Of a DNA stretch of 64,000 bases, positions 981-62,133 are shown one piece after another. The stretch covers positions 57,165 to 121,164 of the forward strand of contig CAZBLD010000004.1 in assembly GCA_964492875.1 (NCBI GenBank), read 5' to 3'. Source of the DNA: an uncultured Planctomycetaceae bacterium. GTDB lineage: Bacteria; Planctomycetota; Phycisphaerae; Sedimentisphaerales; UBA12454. The notes below the pieces were generated by a model, which was not told the origin of the DNA, did no database searches, and saw nothing but the letters and a program-made list of their open reading frames with translations. The position numbers and the translations under genes are program-made. Numbering within the stretch: position 1 is the first letter of the stretch; each line of letters opens with the position of its first letter.

Positions 981-3848
981 TTATATCAAGCCATAAGCCT
1001 CCGCCAAGACCTTAATCGGATGCTCGACTTTTTTGTGTGTCAGTTGTTCAATCTGCATTTTACAGGTTGAACATTCTGTAAGGACAATATCGGCGCCTGA
1101 TTTTTCTATTTCGTCTGCAAGTTTTTTGCCGATTTGCATCGAAAGGTCATAATTTTTCTCCTGCATACCAAATGTTCCCGCTATTCCGCAGCATCCGCCG
1201 TTAAGCTCTTTTACATCAATTTCTGCAAGCTGCTTTAAAACCTCTATTGACGCGTTCTTTTTGCCGAGGGCAAGAAGATGACAGGGTGTATGATGAACAA
1301 GTCTTTCTGTAATCTCTGCCGCCGTTTTCTTCAGTTTACCTGCGTTTGCAAGACTGCTTAGATAATCAAAAAGCTCATACGTATTTTCCGAAACTATTTT
1401 TGCATCGGGACTATCGACAAAAAACCGTAAATCTTCTTTGAGACACAAGGCGGCACTCGGTTCAGAACAGATAATTTTATAACCCTGCTTCGCAACCTCG
1501 GAAAGATATTCGACATTATACTGAAAATCTCTTTTGCTTGTCCTTATATCGCCGTAAACAATGGCGGGGAGCGGCGCAGGTCTTTGCTGCGGAACAATTA
1601 CGTCAATATTATTATGCCTTAGAAACTTTATAACGGCAAAACCAAGCTGGTGGTCATTGAAATTTACAAACGTATCTGTAAAATATGCAGCCTTATCAAC
1701 CGAATTTTCTATTTTTGGCAGACTGTTTAGATATTTTTGTGCCTTGCTGATGAAGCCTGAAAATTCAAATTTCGGTATCGTTCTTCTTGTGTCTATACCT
1801 GTCAATTTTTGCATAATCCACCTGACAGGTGCAAGGCTCATCAAAATATTGCTCACCGGAGCGAAAACAGAAGCAACCATACTCATATAGCGATTGGAAG
1901 CTAAAACCTTTGCAGCGCCGTTCAGTCCGCGCCTTTTTGCAAGCCTTGCGCGGACCTCCATCATCATCTTTGAAACATCCACTCCCGAAGGACAATCAAT
2001 GACACAGGCTTTGCAGTTCAGACAGGTTGCAAGAAGCTCTCTGAATTGCTCCGATTCAAAATCTTTCTCTGTCAGAATCCCTTTTGCCCAGGCGCTAAGC
2101 AGGTTTGCCCTTGCCCGGCAAGAATACATCTCATCACCGGTTGCCCGGAACACCGGGCACATACGCAGGGCAGATTCGGTGCTCCGGCATACGCCGCAGC
2201 CGCTGCACAATAGAAGCTCGAATTTAAACTCGTCTGGCGCAAAATTTAGCTCCGTCTTTGCCCTTTGGTCGATAATTTTATTTTCAGCTCGCAAATTCTG
2301 CGTCATTATATCCGGCCTGTCATTTATTATTTTGCCCGGATTGAGAATGTTCGATGGGTCGAAGATTTTTTTTATCTGTTTTAGAATCCCATAATATTCA
2401 TTGCCAAATTGTTTTTTAATAAATGCCGCTCGCACTAAGCCGTCAGCGTGTTCGCCGCTTATCGAGCCGCCCAGCGACCAGGCAAGCGAAAAAACCTCAT
2501 CAGCTATTTGTGTCATCTTTTTAACATCATCAGGATTTGACAAGTCCAGATATGGCCTTATATGCAGTTCGCCGTCGCCGGCATGACCGTAATAGGTCAT
2601 ATTAACATCGAATTTGACGCCGATTTTTTGCAGACCTTTGACATACTCGGCAAGCTTTGTGTTTTCGACAGAGATATCTTCAATGAAGGGTATCGGCTGT
2701 TTTAAGCCCTTGGCTCTGCTCAAAAGAGGTGCTGCATCCTTTCGGCATTTCCATAACTTTTTCTGCAAGACAGGGTCAAAGACAGTTACTTTGTCGAAAG
2801 CAAGAGAGCCGATTGCCGATATGGTTTTTTCAATTTTCCGCTTAACCTCCTCCATCGAACTGCCCGTATGCTCAACAAGAAGACTTGCAGCAGAAGCAGG
2901 ATTGAGAATATCGCGGTACTGCCCAAAGGCGCCTCTGGCAATTTTAATCAGTTCTCTGCCCATTAGCTCACAGGCGTCTGCACCACAATCGACAATCAAT
3001 GGCACTGCATTTGCCATTTTCTCAAGCGAATCAAATTCAAGCTGCACCACAGCGCTGACCTGCGGCACATCAACCGTCCGCAGCGTAATTTCCGTAAAGA
3101 CCGCCAGTGTGCCTTCCGAACCTGAGAGCAGTTTTGCCATATCAATTTTGTTGCCCTGAACAACGTCTGCAATATTATAGCCGCTGTGGCTGCGCTTCGT
3201 CCTCGGCTGAACTTTTTCAATCACCGCAGCATTTGAACTCAACAGCCTAAAGCAATCCTGTGAAATCTGTGATGGTGTGGGGTCAAAGTTATTTGCAAAT
3301 TCAACAACCGTACCGTCTGCAAGAACTGCCTTTACTTTTTCAACGTATTGGGCGATATAGCCATACCTGAGCGAATGGGCGCCGGTTGCGTTATTGGCAA
3401 CTATTCCGCCGATTACCGCACGATTGCCGCTCGATGGGTCCGGGCCGACTTTTTTGCCGAATTTCGCCAAATAATTATTCAGCTCATCAAGCACAACGCC
3501 CGGCTGACAGACTACGGCGCCGCCGTCAGCGCTTGCACCAATAATTTTGTTCATATAGCGGGTCATATCAAGCAAAATGCCGCTGCCTAAAGACTCCCCT
3601 GCGAGACCGCTGCCTGCCCCGCGAGCCACAACAGGTATATTGTTCTGATGAGCGTATTTTACAACAGCAACAACATCGTCCGTGCTTTTCGGCGCTATGA
3701 TACAAAGCGGGATTATCTGATAGATGCTCGCATCGGTGCTGAACGCTACGCGGGTAAAAATATCAGACAAACAATCGCCCGAAATCAATCGCGAAATTTC
3801 TTTGGCAATCTGCTGTGGCGCTGAAAGACTTTCGATGGGTTTGTTCAT
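981..3848 (-). CDS. FAD-binding oxidase fused to an Fe-S / cysteine-rich (CCG) domain; YdiJ/GlcD-GlcF-like 2-hydroxyacid dehydrogenase
   Basis: 955-aa ORF. The N-terminal half has the FAD-linked oxidase pattern (VVARGAGSGLAGES, later HAGDGELH). The middle has 4Fe-4S ferredoxin-type motifs (CSGCGVCRS...CP and CLNCKACVIDCP). The C-terminal part has Cys-rich CCG-like repeats (CCGIAG, ECSTC). Confidence 0.8.
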   Translation of the reverse strand: MNKPIESLSAPQQIAKEISRLISGDCLSDIFTRVAFSTDASIYQIIPLCIIAPKSTDDVVAVVKYAHQNNIPVVARGAGSGLAGESLGSGILLDMTRYMNKIIGASADGGAVVCQPGVVLDELNNYLAKFGKKVGPDPSSGNRAVIGGIVANNATGAHSLRYGYIAQYVEKVKAVLADGTVVEFANNFDPTPSQISQDCFRLLSSNAAVIEKVQPRTKRSHSGYNIADVVQGNKIDMAKLLSGSEGTLAVFTEITLRTVDVPQVSAVVQLEFDSLEKMANAVPLIVDCGADACELMGRELIKIARGAFGQYRDILNPASAASLLVEHTGSSMEEVKRKIEKTISAIGSLAFDKVTVFDPVLQKKLWKCRKDAAPLLSRAKGLKQPIPFIEDISVENTKLAEYVKGLQKIGVKFDVNMTYYGHAGDGELHIRPYLDLSNPDDVKKMTQIADEVFSLAWSLGGSISGEHADGLVRAAFIKKQFGNEYYGILKQIKKIFDPSNILNPGKIINDRPDIMTQNLRAENKIIDQRAKTELNFAPDEFKFELLLCSGCGVCRSTESALRMCPVFRATGDEMYSCRARANLLSAWAKGILTEKDFESEQFRELLATCLNCKACVIDCPSGVDVSKMMMEVRARLAKRRGLNGAAKVLASNRYMSMVASVFAPVSNILMSLAPVRWIMQKLTGIDTRRTIPKFEFSGFISKAQKYLNSLPKIENSVDKAAYFTDTFVNFNDHQLGFAVIKFLRHNNIDVIVPQQRPAPLPAIVYGDIRTSKRDFQYNVEYLSEVAKQGYKIICSEPSAALCLKEDLRFFVDSPDAKIVSENTYELFDYLSSLANAGKLKKTAAEITERLVHHTPCHLLALGKKNASIEVLKQLAEIDVKELNGGCCGIAGTFGMQEKNYDLSMQIGKKLADEIEKSGADIVLTECSTCKMQIEQLTHKKVEHPIKVLAEAYGLI

Positions 3849-3900: not shown

Positions 3901-4509
3901 CTATCGCTCCGCCCTGCTCCTTAAATCCTCTTCCAGCAAAAAACTCCTGAATGGCTCGTTTCTGAAACACGGGAAATTCAGCGGAGCATAATCTTCTTCT
4001 CCTGCCTGCAGCACAAATTTATCACGCGCAAAGGCTGCGATGACTCTATTGTGGGGACTATCCGGCAGTTGAAATGATAGCTGTTTTCCGCTTCTGGGTT
4101 GAAATTTTGCTATGCAATAGTTCCTTCCTTTTCTGCATCTGATGCTAACGCCGACAAATCCTGACCCGTTTTTACATTTTCTATTCAGGCAGTTTTGCCT
4201 CTTCGTTACAATCCGCAGGTTTTTTCTTCGGTTATCGAGCGGGTCCCTGTTTCTATGGTCGATTATCCGGCCTTCTTTGGCGTCCATTACAAATCGTGAT
4301 AGATGGATATTTCTGCTTGGTTTTGTTCCGCGCACGACTATCGGATAGCCTGCACTGGAAAGGTGAACCGAAGTAATATCGCCATTGTATTTTCTGCAGG
4401 GCAGTTCGTGTCGGCCGCTTCTGATTTTATAAAAAACGTCAGGGTCAACCTTTACTAATCGCCCTCTTATTTTAAACATCAGGTAATTGATTTTGCATTT
4501 AGTCGCCAT
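3901..4509 (-). CDS. HNH endonuclease with C-terminal AP2 DNA-binding domain (homing-endonuclease-like)
   Basis: HNH signature IIDHRNRDPLDNRRKNLRIVTKRQN, followed by an AP2-like segment SGFVGVSI...YCIAKFQ...RVIAAFARDKFVLQAGEEDYAPLNFP. Lies in an AT-richer patch, divergent from the DUF5131 gene. Confidence 0.75.
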   Translation of the reverse strand: MATKCKINYLMFKIRGRLVKVDPDVFYKIRSGRHELPCRKYNGDITSVHLSSAGYPIVVRGTKPSRNIHLSRFVMDAKEGRIIDHRNRDPLDNRRKNLRIVTKRQNCLNRKCKNGSGFVGVSIRCRKGRNYCIAKFQPRSGKQLSFQLPDSPHNRVIAAFARDKFVLQAGEEDYAPLNFPCFRNEPFRSFLLEEDLRSRAER

Positions 4510-4863
4510 ATAAAACTCCGGGAAATTTAAGGGTAAATGGGTTAGTGAGTAAACGGGAAGATGGTCTGTGGCAGAATTGGGATATAAAAAGGCGGGGTTC
4601 TCTTAGTTCGCAGTTGACTGTTTGCAGTTCACAGTAAAATTCGAGAAAATATCAACTGTAAGCTGTTTACTGTAAAGTTGTTATGCAAACATAAGCCAAA
4701 AAATTTGCTAATTATCAAATAACACTGGTATTTTACCATATTTTTAACAAAAGTCAAGGAAAAAACCCCTTTTTTATTAAAAAACGTGTTTTATATTGGT
4801 TATTTTTCCCAACTTTTTCATCCTCAATGAGATGCATTCCCAATATAATGCATAGGTGGTACA

Positions 4864-7640: not shown

Positions 7641-7713
7641 AGCCACCAAGTCACCAAGACACAAAGGTTTTTATTATTTATTTTTTTCTTAGTGCCTTCG
7701 CGCCTTTGTGGCT
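7641..7713. repeat. AGCCAC...GTGGCT intercistronic element, copy 1
   Basis: AGCCACCAAGTCACCAAGACACAAAGG - AT-rich core - AGTGCCTTCGCGCCTTTGTGGCT. It fills the mlaE-stop to mlaF-start gap almost exactly. Confidence 0.7.
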
Positions 7714-11413: not shown

Positions 11414-12457
11414 TTATTTTTCTTTCACTCCCACTGCAACAAGAATTTTGTCTTTGATTTCTTCTGCAAGCTGTTTGTTTTCGACGAGATATTTTTTGGC
11501 ATTTTCTCTGCCTTGTCCGAGTCTTGTTTCACCATAGAGCAGCCAGGCTCCGCTTTTGGCAATAACGCCGCAGTTTGTGCCCATATCGATAAGGTCGCCT
11601 TCATAGCTGATGCCGGAATCGAACATAATATCGAACTCCGATTCGCGGAACGGCGGAGCAATCTTGTTTTTCACAACCCGTGCCCTCACCCTGCTGCCGA
11701 TAGCGATATTTGCTTCCTTTATTGTGGAAATTCTCCTGACATCGAGTCTCACTGCGCTGTAAAACTTAAGGGCGTTGCCGCCCGTTGTGGTTTCCGGGTT
11801 GCCGAACATCACGCCGATTTTCATCCTTATCTGATTGATGAAAATCAGACAGGTCTTGCTCTTGCTTATAACGCCGGTAAGCTTTCTCATCGCCTGGCTC
11901 ATAAGTCTTGCCTGAAGTCCGACATGAGCCTGTCCCATTTCGCCTTCGAGCTCAACCGCCGGCGTAAGAGCCGCAACGGAATCGATAACAATAACGTCAA
12001 CAGCATTAGACCGGATGAGCATATCTGTAATATTGAGTGCCTGCTCTCCGGTATCGGGCTGACTGACCAGCAGGCTACCGACATCAACGCCAAGTCTTTT
12101 GGCCCAGGTGGTATCGAGCGCATGCTCAGCATCAATAAACGCAGCGACTCCGCCTGCCTTCTGAGCACTTGCTATAACATGCAGCGCAAGAGTCGTCTTT
12201 CCGCTGGATTCAGGCCCGAAAAGCTCAATTGCCCTGCCCCGCGGCATACCACAGCCGCCCAGCGCTATATCGAGAGACAGAGACCCTGTCGGAATGCCCT
12301 CAATCTTCGCATACCTGCTTTCGTCCATCTGCATTATTGAGCCGCTGCCATACTGCTTTTCTATCTGCGCGATGGCCCTTTCAAGCGCGCCGCTTTTTGT
12401 GCTCGACTTTTCCGCTTTTTCTTCAGGCGTTTTCTTTGCCCCGGTAGTCTTTGCCAT
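11414..12457 (-). CDS. recA: Recombinase RecA
   Basis: [36 protein letters not shown] (Walker A) and [28 protein letters not shown] are canonical RecA sequences. Confidence 0.98.
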
Positions 12458-12485
12458 AAATTTTTCCTCCTAAAAGTCCTTTTTC

Positions 12486-12552
12486 ACCCCGTTAGAGACG
12501 GGCCGCCCTTGTCGGCCGTCAGGAATCTATGATTCCTTGTCTCTAACGGGGT
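12486..12552. repeat. 67-nt palindromic element, copy 1 (spans the thpR stop codon)
   Basis: ACCCCGTTAGAGACGGGCCGCCCTTGTCGGCCGTCAGGAATCTATGATTCCTTGTCTCTAACGGGGT. The terminal 14-nt arms are perfectly complementary. It supplies the last 8 codons (NPVRDKES) and the stop of thpR. Confidence 0.85.
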
Positions 12553-13177
12553 TAAGCTCGATTTTCCTCAACAGGGTATATACCGGACCATCCGATGTCA
12601 ACTGACTTTTATACAGGCAGACCGAATCAACTGAAATCTTCGGAATCTGCACCCCGTTAGAGACAGGCCGCCCTTGGCGCCCGTCAGGAATCTTTGATTC
12701 CTTGTCTCTAACGGGGTGCACCTGCTGATAATCTTTCAGAAGCTGTCGCAAATTTTTGTCAACGCCGTTATCTCTCACCCTTGCCAGGGTCAGATGCGCA
12801 CTGAACGGCCGGACCTCTTTTTCGAAACCCAACTCCTCAAGAGCCTGCTCCAAATCGGCGGCAAGCTTAGCAAGCTCGGCACTGATTTCTTCACTGCCCA
12901 GCCAGAGCACCTTTGCGGGTCTGCCGAATGCACCGACTACGGAAAGGCTGAATTCAAAGGCTTTTTTATCAGCACAGGCAATTTCAACCGCAGCACAAAT
13001 TTCATCAATCCTGTTTTCATCCGCTTCGCCGAGGAATTTCAGGGTCAGGTGCATAAGTTCGGGCTTGACCCATTTTAATCCGTTCTGATTTTTCATCCTG
13101 CCCTTAAGTTCCTGCTGCAGTTTTGCAACAGCCGCCCGGACATCATCGCCAATATCAATCGCAACAAATAATCTCAT
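12527..13177 (-). CDS. thpR: RNA 2',3'-cyclic phosphodiesterase (2H family, ThpR/LigT) carrying in-frame repeat-derived insertions
   Basis: Two H-x-T-x motifs (HLTLKFLG and HLTLARV) and the typical C-terminus VDSVCLYKSQLTSDGPVYTLL. The peptide segment HPVRDKESKIPDGRQGRPVSNGV and the C-terminal NPVRDKES are encoded by the palindromic repeat. Confidence 0.8.
   Translation of the reverse strand: MRLFVAIDIGDDVRAAVAKLQQELKGRMKNQNGLKWVKPELMHLTLKFLGEADENRIDEICAAVEIACADKKAFEFSLSVVGAFGRPAKVLWLGSEEISAELAKLAADLEQALEELGFEKEVRPFSAHLTLARVRDNGVDKNLRQLLKDYQQVHPVRDKESKIPDGRQGRPVSNGVQIPKISVDSVCLYKSQLTSDGPVYTLLRKIELNPVRDKES
12651..12717. repeat. 67-nt palindromic element, copy 2 (entirely inside the thpR reading frame)
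   Basis: ACCCCGTTAGAGACAGGCCGCCCTTGGCGCCCGTCAGGAATCTTTGATTCCTTGTCTCTAACGGGGT. It differs from copy 1 at only a few positions, and the ORF stays open through it. Confidence 0.85.
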
Positions 13178-13185
13178 AAATACTT

Positions 13186-13260
13186 AGCCACGAAGACACC
13201 AAGGCACAAAGAAAATTGATATTAAATTGAAAAACTTCGTATCTTCGTGCCTTTGTGGCT
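13186..13260. repeat. AGCCAC...GTGGCT intercistronic element, copy 2
   Basis: AGCCACGAAGACACCAAGGCACAAAG - AT-rich core - CTTCGTATCTTCGTGCCTTTGTGGCT. It fills the pfkB-family stop to thpR start gap. Confidence 0.7.
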
Positions 13261-26654: not shown

Positions 26655-27281
26655 TCACATTTTCCTGAAAGCCATGGTGTAAACCGGCCTTCTTTCCACC
26701 AGATATTTCCTTTCATAGTTTGTGCCGACAAGCTCGTTTTCATTTGCACCTGCAGGCCTGACAAATTCGACAGGCCGCAGCCTGTCTGAAAAACTCCCAA
26801 ACACCTGCTGCATCCATTGATAATAATCCTTATCGTCCGTAGCGATATTGATTAAACCGCCCGGCTCGAGACACCGAATCAGTTGTGCAACATTTTCTGC
26901 GCAGACAAAGCGCCTTTTATGATGCCGCCTTTTCGGCCACGGGTCGGGAAAATAGATATGAAAACATTCAACAGTGCTGTCATTTATTGAATCAGCAATA
27001 AAAGATGCGGCCTCAGCTCGAATGATACGAACATTCTCCACTGCCCTCCGCCCAATTCTATCTACGGCATACTTGTAATATTTGTTTGCCCATTCGATGC
27101 CCAGAAAGTTTACCCGCTCAAAAGCCCTCGCCTGGCAAAGCAGAAAAGTGCCTCTGCCGGAACCTATCTCAATGTGAACCGCATTTTTACGTCCGAAAAC
27201 GCCGAAAAAATCATTTTTGCCCCTGACATCTTCAGGTTGCAAAGCGACGTTTGGATACTCTTTTAACCGCCTTTTTGCCAT
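26655..27281 (-). CDS. trmB: tRNA (guanine-N7)-methyltransferase
   Basis: IEIGSGRGTFLL SAM motif, FPDPWPKRRHHKRR (the classic TrmB motif), and 208 aa. Confidence 0.9.
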   Translation of the reverse strand: MAKRRLKEYPNVALQPEDVRGKNDFFGVFGRKNAVHIEIGSGRGTFLLCQARAFERVNFLGIEWANKYYKYAVDRIGRRAVENVRIIRAEAASFIADSINDSTVECFHIYFPDPWPKRRHHKRRFVCAENVAQLIRCLEPGGLINIATDDKDYYQWMQQVFGSFSDRLRPVEFVRPAGANENELVGTNYERKYLVERRPVYTMAFRKM

Positions 27282-27432
27282 ACAGAAGCCTTTTTATTAC
27301 TGCCAGCCTTATTCTGGCCTAAAACCATCTTAAGTCAAGTCCGGCAAAATTCGATACAGATTTTGAGAAACTGCCAAGCCAATAATAACGTAGAGATTAG
27401 AGAAGTCTGTATTTGCGATAGGAGCAGGGAAA

Positions 27433-42651: not shown

Positions 42652-42717
42652 AGCCACAAGGGCACCAAGGCACAGAGGAAATTAAGATATACCTACAAAA
42701 CTTTGTGTCTTTGTGGT
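42652..42717. repeat. AGCCAC...GTGGYT intercistronic element, copy 3
   Basis: AGCCACAAGGGCACCAAGGCACAGAGG - AT-rich core - CTTTGTGTCTTTGTGGTT. It abuts the thioesterase stop codon and lies upstream of lpxB. Confidence 0.65.
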
Positions 42718-43616: not shown

Positions 43617-43772
43617 ACGGCACTCACCGCGGTCGGGCTGCGGTGGGCTTCGACCCGACGAGTGCGACCGCATCGCAACGAGCAGGGAAGGCTGGTACCG
43701 AATGGAGACTTGTCCCGTCAGATAAAGGCTGTCTGGCGGGATAAATAAAAAAGGATTTGAGGCTGAATGTAA

Positions 43773-47924: not shown

Positions 47925-48068
47925 TTATTGTGCGTTGGTGTCAGGCTGTACCTGCGGAGCCGCGGGGGCTTCTGGAGCAGCTTTTGGCGCGGCTTTTTGA
48001 GTTTTCTTGCAGCCGAAGACAACAACTAAAGCGAGGACAAGAGCAATTGTCAGAATTTTTCGCAACAT
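47925..48068 (-). CDS. Mini-lipoprotein (47 aa), paralog of 48100-48318
   Basis: Below the ORF-track cutoff. My translation: MLRKILTIALVLALVVVFGCKKTQKAAPKAAPEAPAAPQVQPDTNAQ. The lipobox is VFGC. The upstream AAGGAGAACACAAA is almost identical to that of the neighbouring gene. Confidence 0.55.
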   Translation of the reverse strand: MLRKILTIALVLALVVVFGCKKTQKAAPKAAPEAPAAPQVQPDTNAQ

Positions 48069-48099
48069 TTTGTGTTCTCCTTAAATAAAAATTGTCTGT

Positions 48100-48318
48100 C
48101 TATACGTTCGGTTCAGTCTCAGCAGCGTCTTTTTTGATTTCTTTCTCAATTTTTTCGAGCTGCTGATTCATGTTTTCCTTTGTTACTTCCTTTTCAGCCT
48201 GTTTTTGGGCGTCAGTTGCCGTTTTTGAAGGAGCGACAGGTTGTCCGGTTTTCTTCCTGCAGCCGAAGGCGACAACCAAGACAAGGATGATAGCAAGAAT
48301 CAGGATTTTTCGCAACAC
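48100..48318 (-). CDS. Mini-lipoprotein (72 aa)
   Basis: MLRKILILAIILVLVVAFGC lipobox, then a Lys/Glu-rich tail. GTG start preceded by AAGGAGAATACAAA. Confidence 0.6.
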   Translation of the reverse strand: MLRKILILAIILVLVVAFGCRKKTGQPVAPSKTATDAQKQAEKEVTKENMNQQLEKIEKEIKKDAAETEPNV

Positions 48319-48349
48319 TTTGTATTCTCCTTAAATAAAAGCCGTTTGT

Positions 48350-48913
48350 TTATTTGTTTGGTTCGCCCGCTGTGCTCGTGCCCTGTCGCGGCAGGTTCGT
48401 TTCAGCGAGGCTGATATCAGGAGTTTTGATTTGGCGGTTTTTTTCGGATTTTTCAACAGGCCAGAGGGGTTTGCGGTGAAGCTGGGTTACCTTTTTCGTA
48501 TGTCTGTCGTTTTCCATCTTTATGAGATTGTCGGCCTTTTCGATTGTGTCAGCGAGTCCTTCCTGCTCGGCGAGCTGGCGGATACGATTCAATATTGCGA
48601 TTCGCAGATTGTGTTTCCGATATTCCTCAGCAAGCTGAGTCTCGAATGCCTGATACCGGCCGGCGCGCCGCCTGACATTAGCCCTCCGTTGTTCTGCCGC
48701 AGGCCGGTTTATTTCTCCGGGCCGCTGATTTTTGATAAGCCTTTCACGAACGACTTGTAGCCGCTGAACCATATTAGGCTCGTTTGACTCGGGCAGCGGT
48801 GCTGTTACAGACGAAGATTGAGCCGGCCCCTGTGGGTCGTTGCCGGTGTCCCCTGCTGCTGCGATGAACAGGATGAAACAATTCAAAAACAAAAATGGAA
48901 GCGCCCTTTTCAT
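48350..48913 (-). CDS. Secreted hypothetical protein (Arg/Gln/Glu-rich, probably helical)
   Basis: N-terminal signal-like MKRALPFLFLNCFILFIAAAG. No recognisable domain. Confidence 0.5.
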   Translation of the reverse strand: MKRALPFLFLNCFILFIAAAGDTGNDPQGPAQSSSVTAPLPESNEPNMVQRLQVVRERLIKNQRPGEINRPAAEQRRANVRRRAGRYQAFETQLAEEYRKHNLRIAILNRIRQLAEQEGLADTIEKADNLIKMENDRHTKKVTQLHRKPLWPVEKSEKNRQIKTPDISLAETNLPRQGTSTAGEPNK

Positions 48914-57204: not shown

Positions 57205-57252
57205 GAAGTTAAAAGGAAGTAAAGAAGTAAGGATGTAAGGAAATAATTTCAT

Positions 57253-57284
57253 AAAGGCTGATTTGAAAAAGTCGGCCTTTTTTG
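57253..57284 (+). terminator. Paralogous terminator cassette 1 (AAAGGCTGATTTGAAAAAGTCGGCCTTTTTT)
   Basis: Stem GGCTGA/TCGGCC with one G-U pair and a T6 tail, after parB. Confidence 0.75.
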
Positions 57285-58470: not shown

Positions 58471-58496
58471 GAATTAATGACGGATTTTAGTCTTTT

Positions 58497-58530
58497 AAAA
58501 AGGCCGATTTGAAAAAGTCGGCCTTTTTTG
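58497..58530 (+). terminator. Paralogous terminator cassette 2 (AAAAAGGCCGATTTGAAAAAGTCGGCCTTTTTT)
   Basis: Perfect GGCCGA/TCGGCC stem with a T6 tail. Confidence 0.8.
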
Positions 58531-62012: not shown

Positions 62013-62041
62013 AAAATAGCTTGATTTTTTGAGCGTTTTAG

Positions 62042-62071
62042 AAAGGCCGATTTTAAAAATCGGCCTTTTTT
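62042..62071 (+). terminator. Paralogous terminator cassette 4 (AAAGGCCGATTTTAAAAATCGGCCTTTTTT)
   Basis: Perfect stem with a T6 tail. Followed by a GATTGGTTTTTGGGGCGAAAATGAGG tract that also follows cassette 1 (GTTGGTTTTGGGGGCAAAAATAGGG). Confidence 0.8.
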
Positions 62072-62133
62072 GATTGGTTTTTGGGGCGAAAATGAGGTTT
62101 TTAGGAGAATTTTCAAAAAAATTTATTTTTTTA

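Follow-up and report, generated by a model that had tools for sequence, protein, structure and literature searches.

An in-frame, MITE-like palindrome in a planctomycete thpR gene and a longer, same-ended element that encodes a candidate mobilizing nuclease

How can a protein-coding gene take up the same palindrome twice and still be read? This question is raised by thpR, which encodes an RNA 2',3'-cyclic phosphodiesterase of the LigT family, in a 64,000-nucleotide (nt) stretch of DNA from an uncultured Planctomycetaceae bacterium (GenBank assembly GCA_964492875.1, contig CAZBLD010000004.1, positions 57,165 to 121,164; the whole stretch is called the window here). Two near-identical palindromic repeats lie within and at the end of this gene, and a sequence-only reading had interpreted them as a mobile or recombinogenic hairpin that invades coding sequences in the manner of the Rickettsia palindromic elements (RPEs). 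Alignment of filled and empty alleles shows these repeats to be two independent insertions of a small, nonautonomous transposable element that resembles a MITE, a miniature transposable element with inverted repeats. What the window contains is an in-frame MITE-like palindrome; the surprising part is the family to which it belongs, together with the candidate nuclease partner of that family. It is probable, in our view, that the copies in the window are MITE-like insertions from a family that would be mobilized in trans by a GIY-YIG nuclease encoded in a longer form of the element.

Two insertions of a 65-bp element in thpR

The two repeats (12486-12552 and 12651-12717) are 94% identical, and their 14-nt termini, ACCCCGTTAGAGAC and GTCTCTAACGGGGT, are perfectly complementary, as originally described. 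The pair is real, but the length of 67 nt initially assigned to the repeat unit does not hold: the mobile unit is 65 bp long, is bounded by terminal inverted repeats of 13 bp (Y-CCCGTTAGAGAC ... GTCTCTAACGGG-R), and encloses two hairpins, with no coding capacity of its own (Table 1). With the accompanying 4-bp target duplication, each insertion therefore adds 69 bp, that is, 23 codons. Each copy, on either strand, folds as a Y with an outer stem of 14 to 18 bp and two inner hairpins, at free energies of -42 to -51 kcal/mol (z scores of -7 to -10). Within the window, the terminal 14-mer occurs 4 times versus 0.14 occurrences expected from shuffling, the longer internal pattern of the repeat is found in two places only, and a covariance model run over all 64 kb detected no good copy beyond the two in the thpR region. 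The sole additional match of the model is a weak, truncated hairpin at positions 43712-43742 (18.8 bits; rough E value, 0.01). This 31-nt, arm-like hairpin (TCCCGTCAGA...TGTCTGGCGGGA), which is followed by an A-rich tract, may be a decayed relic of the element or an unrelated terminator.

The host gene, on the minus strand, encodes a protein of 216 amino acids (aa) with two LigT_PEase domains; most of 1,379 ThpR homologues have 185 to 193 aa. Its open reading frame (ORF) runs through copy 2, which lies entirely in frame, as had been noticed from the sequence, and continues there as ...V-HPVRDKESKIPDGRQGRPVSNGV-Q... after the second HxTx motif; it terminates within copy 1, at a TAG that follows ...RKIEL-NPVRDKES. 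Of 27 aligned ThpR homologues, just the window protein, P0002 (94% identical), and P0003 contain the block HPVRDKESKIPDGRQGRPVSNGV, which is absent from orthologues that are 84 to 89% identical over the shared sequence. The usual C terminus in the same alignment is ...RKIEL-KKD[IF], immediately before the stop, whereas the window protein, P0013, P0022, and P0023 end with ...IEL-[NS]PVRD[KR][EK]S. The sequence-only reading was right to attribute NPVRDKES and the stop codon to copy 1, but RKIEL, which it took for the natural C terminus, is not the true end of the protein, which is ...RKIEL-KKD[FI]; the displaced remnant of that end, KKDF, lies beyond the insertion.

The DNA of four related loci, all with the gene order pfkB-thpR-recA-alaS, was compared to obtain filled and empty versions of both sites. 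The empty loci (L112 and L115) read ...CAGG-TGCA-GATT... and ...T-TGAA-AAA..., where the window reads TGCA[C-CCC...GGG-G]TGCA at copy 2 and T(T)AA[...]TGAA at copy 1; at the position where the window shows TTAA, a third locus (L114) retains TGAA. In silico removal of copy 2 and one TGCA yields YQQ-VQIPKI, which matches the orthologous YTQ-VQIPKI, and the old 3' tail of the gene survives in phase downstream of copy 1. The hairpin 1 loop of copy 1 contains TAG in place of the AAG of copy 2, and because of that, translation now ends inside copy 1. These alignments show that, with copy 1 inserted at TGAA, ThpR ends with ...IEL-NPVRDKES and that the former KKDF tail with its stop is left untranslated. 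Precise empty sites in orthologous DNA, each matched by a 4-bp duplication in the filled allele, bear out the earlier notion of a mobile hairpin element.

Copy 1 has changed the context of recA as well. At the empty loci, 11 to 12 nt separate the thpR stop from the recA ATG, and the stop overlaps the Shine-Dalgarno sequence of recA; the window has a spacing of 69 nt, which contains half of a strong hairpin, with the recA ribosome-binding site intact. No terminator-like site with a U-tract was found on the coding (minus) strand at either copy. In an AlphaFold model built from the 27-homologue alignment (mean predicted local distance difference test [pLDDT] score, 81.6; predicted template modeling [pTM] score, 0.77), the insert (residues 154-176) has pLDDT values of 45 to 56 and no secondary structure and lies between helix 142-149 and strand 181-183; the remainder of the fold is confident. 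The modeled, unstructured stretch fits the insertion of copy 2 into a tolerated surface loop, as had been suggested from the sequence.

Sites in other genes of the window that are empty are occupied in related MAGs (metagenome-assembled genomes). At L009, the element is present (GG-TGCA[...]TGCA-T) where the window, at 27040-27300, is empty (GG-TTCA-C), and both L021 and L049 carry it where the window is empty at 3053-3266. In the closest relative (L113, the P0002 locus, 1590-1885; 94% aa identity), copy 2 occupies the same site, with hairpin 1 replaced by a different hairpin (ACCCCTAAGGGG) that makes the insert 6 nt shorter. This locus lacks copy 1 and has a 24-nt in-frame insert (TSASSVES), also found in P0005, at the same TGAA site. 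A module swap, a reinsertion, or a footprint could account for these differences; a comparison of the 24-nt insert with the element ends, prompted by the idea of an excision footprint, gave no convincing similarity. Other in-frame palindromic inserts, with CCCC...GGGG arms and flanking TGAA or TTGA repeats, occur in the ThpR orthologues P0021 (L237; gene at 108-848) and P0018 (L238; gene at 1001-1624). Among these, one insert is 54 nt long (TTGA-C-CCCGCACCTTC...GAAGGTGCGGG-G-TTGA), a second is 108 nt long (TGAA-CCCCCACACCTATT...AATAGGTGTGGGGG-TGAA), and a third is a 63-nt GC-rich hairpin. With these inserts, the number of separate hits on thpR in this lineage rises to at least 5, and such palindromic elements probably form a wider superfamily.

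A frame-preserving family in six or more phyla

A scan for exact matches to CCCGTTAGAGAC-N30-50-GTCTCTAACGGG, with one genome per species, found the arms at at least 109 loci besides the two in thpR, in six or more phyla (Planctomycetota, Patescibacteria, Omnitrophota, Nitrospirota, Desulfobacterales, and Nanoarchaeota); the chance expectation, estimated from the 24 fixed bases, is ∼0.1 matches. The element is not confined to thpR even in its own lineage, where several contigs each of related Sedimentisphaerales metagenome-assembled genomes (MAGs) carry it. Individual MAGs often have the element on several contigs, and most loci hold a single element. The first 80 loci listed comprise 33 from Planctomycetota, 29 from Patescibacteria, 6 from Omnitrophota, 2 each from Desulfobacterales and Nitrospirae, 1 from Nanoarchaeota, and 7 from unclassified bacteria.

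In-frame insertion of the kind proposed for thpR is general in the family. The distance from CCC to GGG is a multiple of 3 in 97 of the 115 copies (84%), at 63, 60, 66, 57, 69, or 54 nt, and the outer stem of family copies is two pairs longer than the arms. A 4-nt direct repeat (left[-5..-2] = right[+2..+5]) flanks 94 to 104 of 114 copies, and the target is TNNA in about two-thirds of the copies and CNNG in about one-third. Long open frames contain 61 of the 115 copies, and a further 17 and 4 lie at the N-terminal and C-terminal edges of such a frame, respectively; no long frame surrounds the other 33. Random 63-nt windows from the same loci are covered by an open frame in 80% of cases, more often than the element copies, so that the element is tolerated in genes but not enriched there.

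One phase per orientation always holds a TAG. The frame CCC GTT AGA GAC (PVRD) ... GTC TCT AAC GGG (VSNG) is free of stops, and insertion in that phase therefore lengthens a protein without truncating it. Among 69 canonical copies, 64 keep this phase open, and no other phase is as common within genes (33 of 61); the peptide PVRDK..SK..DGRQ.RPVSNG recurs in many proteins. The lengths and phases of the aligned copies show a family that is constrained to preserve open reading frames. Its secondary structure is conserved as well: among 41 distinct 63-nt copies, 92% of the cells are paired versus 34 to 41% in slid controls, and changes on both sides were seen at 7 of 7 pairs in hairpin 1 and at 6 of 7 in hairpin 2, so that 13 of the 14 inner pairs show compensatory changes.

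Some short copies share particular targets. Four (L022, L025, L099, and L108) are inserted at TTTA in the G-FTL(V/I)E prepilin-type N-terminal motif of different proteins, and four (L053, L091, L096, and L100) are located on TTGAC -35-like boxes.

A longer form with the same ends encodes a GIY-YIG nuclease

At locus L100, the arms of a 273-nt variant tightly bracket an 86-aa ORF with a GIY-YIG domain (Pfam PF01541; E value, 1.5e-16). In a single metagenome scan for arms 235 to 265 nt apart, at least 120 loci were found, with total lengths clustered at 265 to 283 nt (mode, 275). About 100 of the matches listed encode an intact conserved protein, ...YYVYVL.S.KD..WYTG.T.DLRKRF.EHN......TK.RGPFELIYYEAC.N..DA..REKYLKSGMGKRYLKNRLKRFLSLTG followed by the stop. 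The similarity of the short and long forms extends from their ends to asymmetric subterminal bases: in both, AA follows the left arm and CCT precedes the right arm. The nuclease gene is the only gene of the ∼275-bp element, which has no recognized transposase, and no partner of the size of an insertion sequence (IS) was seen: in 1.58 Mb fetched around 280 element copies, no pair of arms 0.3 to 3 kb apart was found.

The right arm of the long form encodes the last residues of the nuclease, LSLTG, and the stop codon (TGA or TAA) lies in the flank; the right flank mostly reads R-T-[G/A]-A-A. Among 100 unique long copies, the first codon of the right flank is ATG or GTG in 73, and in 55 an open frame of at least 60 aa then follows, which points to an ATGA overlap with the start of a host gene. 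An exact 4-nt flank repeat (ATGAAY...ATGAAN) is present in 43 of the 100, and the open nuclease frame of these copies extends back to the duplicated upstream ATG (MNPVRD...). An ATG of their own lies 3 to 10 nt into the left arm of the remaining copies, in which the left flank has ceased to match the right.

The nuclease ORF is under purifying selection, as judged from a median dN/dS of 0.17 (721 pairs, arm-encoded codons excluded), and the positions of the catalytic motif (conserved Tyr, Tyr, Arg, and Glu) show conservation of >90% among 90 unique ORFs. Of the solved structures, those nearest to the protein are UPF0213 BH0048 (1zg2; E value, 8e-10), UPF0213 EF2693 (1ywl), and a homologue of SLX1 (7wme). 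At 21.6 bits, the match to the NCBIfam group I intron endonuclease model stays below the cutoff of 56, and a PADLOC scan of the nuclease gave no match to a defense family. Database searches returned 6,154 and 4,913 clusters, annotated solely as “GIY-YIG nuclease family protein,” “excinuclease ABC subunit C,” or “putative endonuclease.” The named matches are mostly from Patescibacteria, with another from WOR-3; in a match from a Planctomycetes MAG (OHC05214.1), the ORF lies between the same arms, with one compensated change (AGAGAT/ATCTCT).

Several loci show the long form, or genes similar to it, in other arrangements. A Planctomycetes MAG locus (L239, 1-6261) has the nuclease element within a type I restriction-modification/Fic/ORF6N cluster; the same locus recurs in L240 to L246 and is identical across many samples. 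Tandem long-form insertions occur at L187, L208, L219, and L228. A third size class, of ∼115 to 120 nt, has the same arms, one GC hairpin beside one arm, and an AT-rich segment. Its members, for example, at L125 (6625-6739), L168 (2137-2255 and 4074-4194), L201 (8601-8714 and 9287-9401), and L212 (8116-8231), are mostly flanked by ATGAA or TTCAT and lie at gene starts on contigs that resemble those of the candidate phyla radiation (CPR). More distant GIY-YIG homologues (∼40% identity) are bracketed by other repeats at L121 (4906-5270) and L219 (minus strand, ∼4190-4560); one of these two loci has a pair of ∼27-nt inverted repeats (GTCATCCCGAGCGCAGTCGAGGGATCT), and at the other, a tRNA gene is adjacent, with its 5' segment duplicated. 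Flanked in this way by repeats, small GIY-YIG genes may represent a general architecture.

How the family may move

SLX1-type enzymes cleave branched and hairpin DNA, an activity that suggests recognition of the arms with cuts staggered by 4 bp. On the explanation that we favor, the 86-aa SLX1/UPF0213-type nuclease of the ∼275-bp elements would mobilize the entire same-ended family in trans, probably acting as a dimer. It would recognize the paired arms, or the arms extruded as a cruciform, and cut with a 4-bp stagger at the boundary between arm and target, and repair and ligation by the host would complete the move. The long form itself would insert at A-TGAA and use the ribosome-binding site of the host gene, together with the duplicated ATG, for expression of the nuclease; it would end on the TGA of GGG-A-TGA-A and thereby re-create the ATG of the host gene in an ATGA overlap, a start-codon strategy that we infer from the arrangement of the flanks.

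More tentatively, the arms could define an undescribed class of minimal autonomous elements, a proposal that we hold to be a real possibility if not the likelier outcome. Such a class would comprise elements of ∼275 bp with 13-bp terminal repeats and a 4-bp duplication, with insertion driven by a GIY-YIG enzyme instead of a DDE, HUH, or recombinase-type transposase and with A-TGAA targeting, their frame-neutral 65-bp derivatives across Patescibacteria, Planctomycetota, Omnitrophota, and DPANN archaea, and a broad superfamily that includes the relatives at L121 and L219 and is concealed by the label “GIY-YIG nuclease family protein.”

Several observations weigh against mobilization by the nuclease. 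The exact 4-nt direct repeat is retained in just 43 of the 100 long copies, and no clean empty site was found for the long form, with one suggestive but diverged pair (L167/L212). Some long-form insertions are shared by genomes whose flanks are at ∼80% identity, a persistence that fits a stable resident gene as well as an active transposon. A tblastn search of the 64-kb window detected no GIY-YIG homologue. We know of no 86-aa hydrolytic nuclease that performs transposition, and no strand-transfer or ligation activity was identified for this one. Furthermore, members of the family were retrieved by their exact arms, so that the counts are minima and both arm conservation and copy numbers are biased, and the taxonomic labels derive from MAG bins.

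The missing homologue in the window is also in line with the view that the short elements are ordinary MITEs of a conventional DDE IS, for example, of a family that makes 4-bp duplications, whose transposase recognizes the 13-bp ends; the GIY-YIG ORF would then be a passenger or a second nonautonomous derivative. Terminal inverted repeats, a target duplication of fixed length, and a preference for palindromic targets form the classic DDE signature, and the short and long forms have little in common beyond their ends. We nevertheless consider a DDE parent unlikely. The search of the 1.58 Mb around element copies revealed no arm pair at the spacing of such a parent, the GIY-YIG gene is the only ORF ever bracketed by the arms, in ∼100 independent contexts, and this ORF is both under purifying selection and interlocked, in its coding sequence, with the right arm.

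Still less probable is a role of the GIY-YIG gene as a free-standing homing endonuclease that uses the short element as its homing site. The short copies would have spread by other means, and the long form would have arisen by invasion of a resident short copy through cleavage and repair. In favor of this view, homing endonucleases with a GIY-YIG domain form an established class (PMC2988022), both forms have the same arms and asymmetric subterminal bases, and the interior can be exchanged at a fixed site: at one thpR site, the window and L113 have different versions of hairpin 1. However, no site was found that is occupied by the short form in one genome and by the long form in another, and the long form strongly favors gene starts with ATGAA, in contrast to the distribution of the short forms over TNNA sites. 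The protein, moreover, lacks a separate DNA-binding domain of the I-TevI type and groups with the SLX1/UPF0213 clade, not with the homing endonuclease clade (PMC1564403).

Selected host regulatory structures, with a role in RNA stability, processing, or attenuation of the thpR-recA operon, would explain the very stable predicted RNA folds, the covariation in both inner hairpins, and the position of copy 1 between two co-oriented genes. This interpretation is very improbable, and the empty alleles already contradict it: presence and absence vary among close relatives, with 4-bp targets duplicated, and copies of the element are found across phyla in genes that have nothing to do with one another, in either orientation and in several frames. 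Nor is there an Rfam match or a terminator U-tract on the coding strand. Finally, although the PVRDK..SK..DGRQ.RPVSNG peptide is found in many proteins, there is practically no chance that ThpR inherited the 23-aa segment and the C-terminal extension from its ancestor or that these constitute a conserved peptide module, a view refuted by the protein and DNA alignments: the segment is missing from most ThpR orthologues, close ones included, is predicted to be disordered, and is also read in three other phases and present outside genes, and its conservation resides in the nucleotide palindrome.

A number of other identities were considered and rejected. A ribozyme or known structured RNA, to which the three-way junction had pointed as a hammerhead-like fold, found no support in Rfam 15, which gave no match over 12400-12800 either at the gathering threshold or at E values up to 10; lengths divisible by 3 likewise speak for translation and not for excision. 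A CRISPR repeat with the interior as a spacer is inconsistent with an interior conserved between copies and with the single element at most loci. In an integron attC site (RYYYAAC...GTTRRRY), the GTT and AAC motifs would stand in the opposite order within the arms, and no cassette arrays were seen. A translational bypass (“hop”) element with matched take-off and landing codons does not agree with a frame that stays open and with lengths that are multiples of 3. “Lone arms,” which could mark the ends of a long parent, turned out to be ordinary copies with one point mutation, again with no pairs 0.3 to 3 kb apart. Phages as cross-phylum vehicles were dismissed because viral contigs yielded no match to the short or the long form, and membership of the nuclease in a defense system was dismissed on the PADLOC result. 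An intrinsic terminator lacks a terminator-like minus-strand site at either copy. Membership among the REP (repetitive extragenic palindrome) elements and REP-associated tyrosine transposases (RAYTs) conflicts with the ends (YCCCGTTAGAGAC), the many intragenic copies, and the GIY-YIG nature of the associated ORF.

Comparison with known systems

The likeness to RPEs lies in short palindromes that are inserted in unrelated protein genes with the frame kept, adding a peptide where the fold tolerates it. According to the summary of Ogata et al. (2000) in PMC10969869, RPEs are ∼100 to 150 bp long, limited to Rickettsia and close relatives, and without a known mobilizing enzyme. The element described here has 65 bp, 13-bp terminal repeats, and a 4-bp duplication, is found in several phyla, and shares its ends with a nuclease-encoding form; its size and its hosts (Planctomycetota, Patescibacteria, and others) set it apart. 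The designation “RPE-like” is therefore apt as an analogy, but the element lies outside the Rickettsia RPE families.

Bacterial MITEs such as Correia, RUP, Nezha, Chunjie, and the Coxiella QMITEs (PMC3184786, PMC5896051, PMC10969869) are likewise small, noncoding, and multicopy, with terminal repeats, target duplications, filled and empty alleles, and occasional in-frame fusions. Known MITEs share their ends with a transposase-encoding IS, whereas the coding relative here encodes only the 86-aa GIY-YIG nuclease; this family differs furthermore in its identical ends across phyla and its pronounced multiple-of-3 length constraint. In structure, the element is a MITE, except that its coding partner is not a known transposase.

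Among other systems, the combination of REPs or REPINs with RAYTs (PMC2817692, PMC3116915, PMC3333891, PMC8266576) similarly pairs many short, nonautonomous palindromes with a small nuclease-type gene bracketed by inverted repeat copies. RAYTs, however, are HUH/Y1 enzymes that are usually present in a single copy, and REPs are 20 to 40 nt long and extragenic, with GTAG or CGTC heads; here, the enzyme is of the GIY-YIG type, the ORF-bearing unit occurs at many sites, the target is duplicated over 4 bp, and many copies are intragenic. The best sequence match to the nuclease is found among prokaryotic Slx1-like/UPF0213 (YhbQ-type) proteins (1zg2, 1ywl; PMC1564403), which also consist of a minimal, stand-alone GIY-YIG domain. 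A 2006 survey of the GIY-YIG superfamily considered the prokaryotic Slx1-like proteins to be vertically inherited repair enzymes and derived the selfish members from the other lineage (PMC1564403). By contrast, the clade described here is flanked by terminal repeats, has a repeat-encoded C terminus, and occupies many unrelated sites, mostly start codons. The free-standing GIY-YIG homing endonucleases of phages (Seg, T4; PMC2988022) are likewise small, selfish nuclease genes between or at the edges of host genes. In that case, the gene is copied into a cognate allele without terminal repeats or target duplications, and DNA binding resides in separate domains of the enzymes; no element of the present family was found on viral contigs, and the 86-aa protein is a catalytic domain only. 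A literature search, with most subscription journals outside its reach, found no description of bacterial GIY-YIG genes with terminal repeats or of the arm sequence.

In-frame invasion of proteins by selfish palindromes has so far rested mainly on Rickettsia, and the same phenomenon is now seen in at least six phyla, in hosts that include reduced Patescibacteria genomes and a Nanoarchaeota MAG. Given this wide spread and explicit rules of insertion (69 bp, a stop-free phase, and a TNNA target), the effect on protein evolution becomes open to systematic study. Gene callers and protein alignments in these phyla should expect palindrome-encoded inserts of 18 to 36 residues, as well as N-terminal extensions. 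If the GIY-YIG nuclease does mobilize the family, it would represent a new catalytic class in prokaryotic transposition, and the long form would be among the smallest autonomous elements known, with an unusual start-codon-sitting strategy; more than 6,000 clusters labeled GIY-YIG, excinuclease ABC subunit C, or putative endonuclease would then be reinterpreted.

Features of the thpR region and other repeats in the window

Table 1. Features of the two insertions and their surroundings, in window coordinates
Feature	Position	Strand	Evidence or remark
recA	11414-12457	-	Directly downstream of thpR
Displaced ancestral thpR tail, AAA AAG GAC TTT TAG (KKDF-stop)	12470-12484	-	TAG overlaps the recA Shine-Dalgarno sequence (TAGGAGG)
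Copy 1, target-site duplication (TTCA on the plus strand, TGAA on the coding strand)	12483-12486		Empty site has a single TGAA
Copy 1, 65-bp element, 4 codons before the ancestral thpR stop, now between thpR and recA	12487-12551	-	L112 and L115 empty (..TTGAAAAA..); L114 (P0013) has the same insertion
Copy 1, second duplication, one base diverged (TTAA)	12552-12555		L114 has TGAA there
Present thpR stop, TAG, in the loop of inner hairpin 1 of copy 1	12527-12529	-	Copy 2 has AAG at the matching place
thpR, RNA 2',3'-cyclic phosphodiesterase, LigT family; host gene of both insertions	12527-13177	-	ORF, domain, and homologue evidence
Copy 2, first target-site duplication, TGCA	12648-12651		Empty allele, single GG-TGCA-G; filled allele, TGCA[element]TGCA
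Copy 2, 65-bp element in thpR	12652-12716	-	In frame as (V)HPVRDKESKIPDGRQGRPVSNG(V), ThpR residues ∼154-176; segment absent in orthologues P0004 to P0008; L112 and L115 DNA empty
Inner hairpin 2 of copy 2, GC-rich	12666-12682	-	Counterpart in copy 1, 12501-12517
Inner hairpin 1 of copy 2 (AGGAATC-AAA-GATTCCT)	12686-12702	-	Counterpart in copy 1, 12521-12537
Copy 2, second target-site duplication, TGCA	12717-12720		DNA alignment

The window contains other, separate repeats. A further hairpin family, with GGCAC-containing octamers (AGCCACRAGGRCACCAAGGCACA...TGTGCCTTTGTGGCT), is present at 13186-13260, 42652-42715, and 7688-7713, with one copy in the 88-nt gap between thpR and the upstream pfkB-family gene. 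A 47-nt hairpin repeat occurs at 635-681 and 897-943 (87%), and a 111-nt direct repeat occurs at 48004-48114 and 48254-48364 (78%). Finally, a family of terminator-like hairpins (AAAAAGGCCGA...TCGGCCTTTTTT) is found at 57247-57284, 58493-58530, and 62036-62073.

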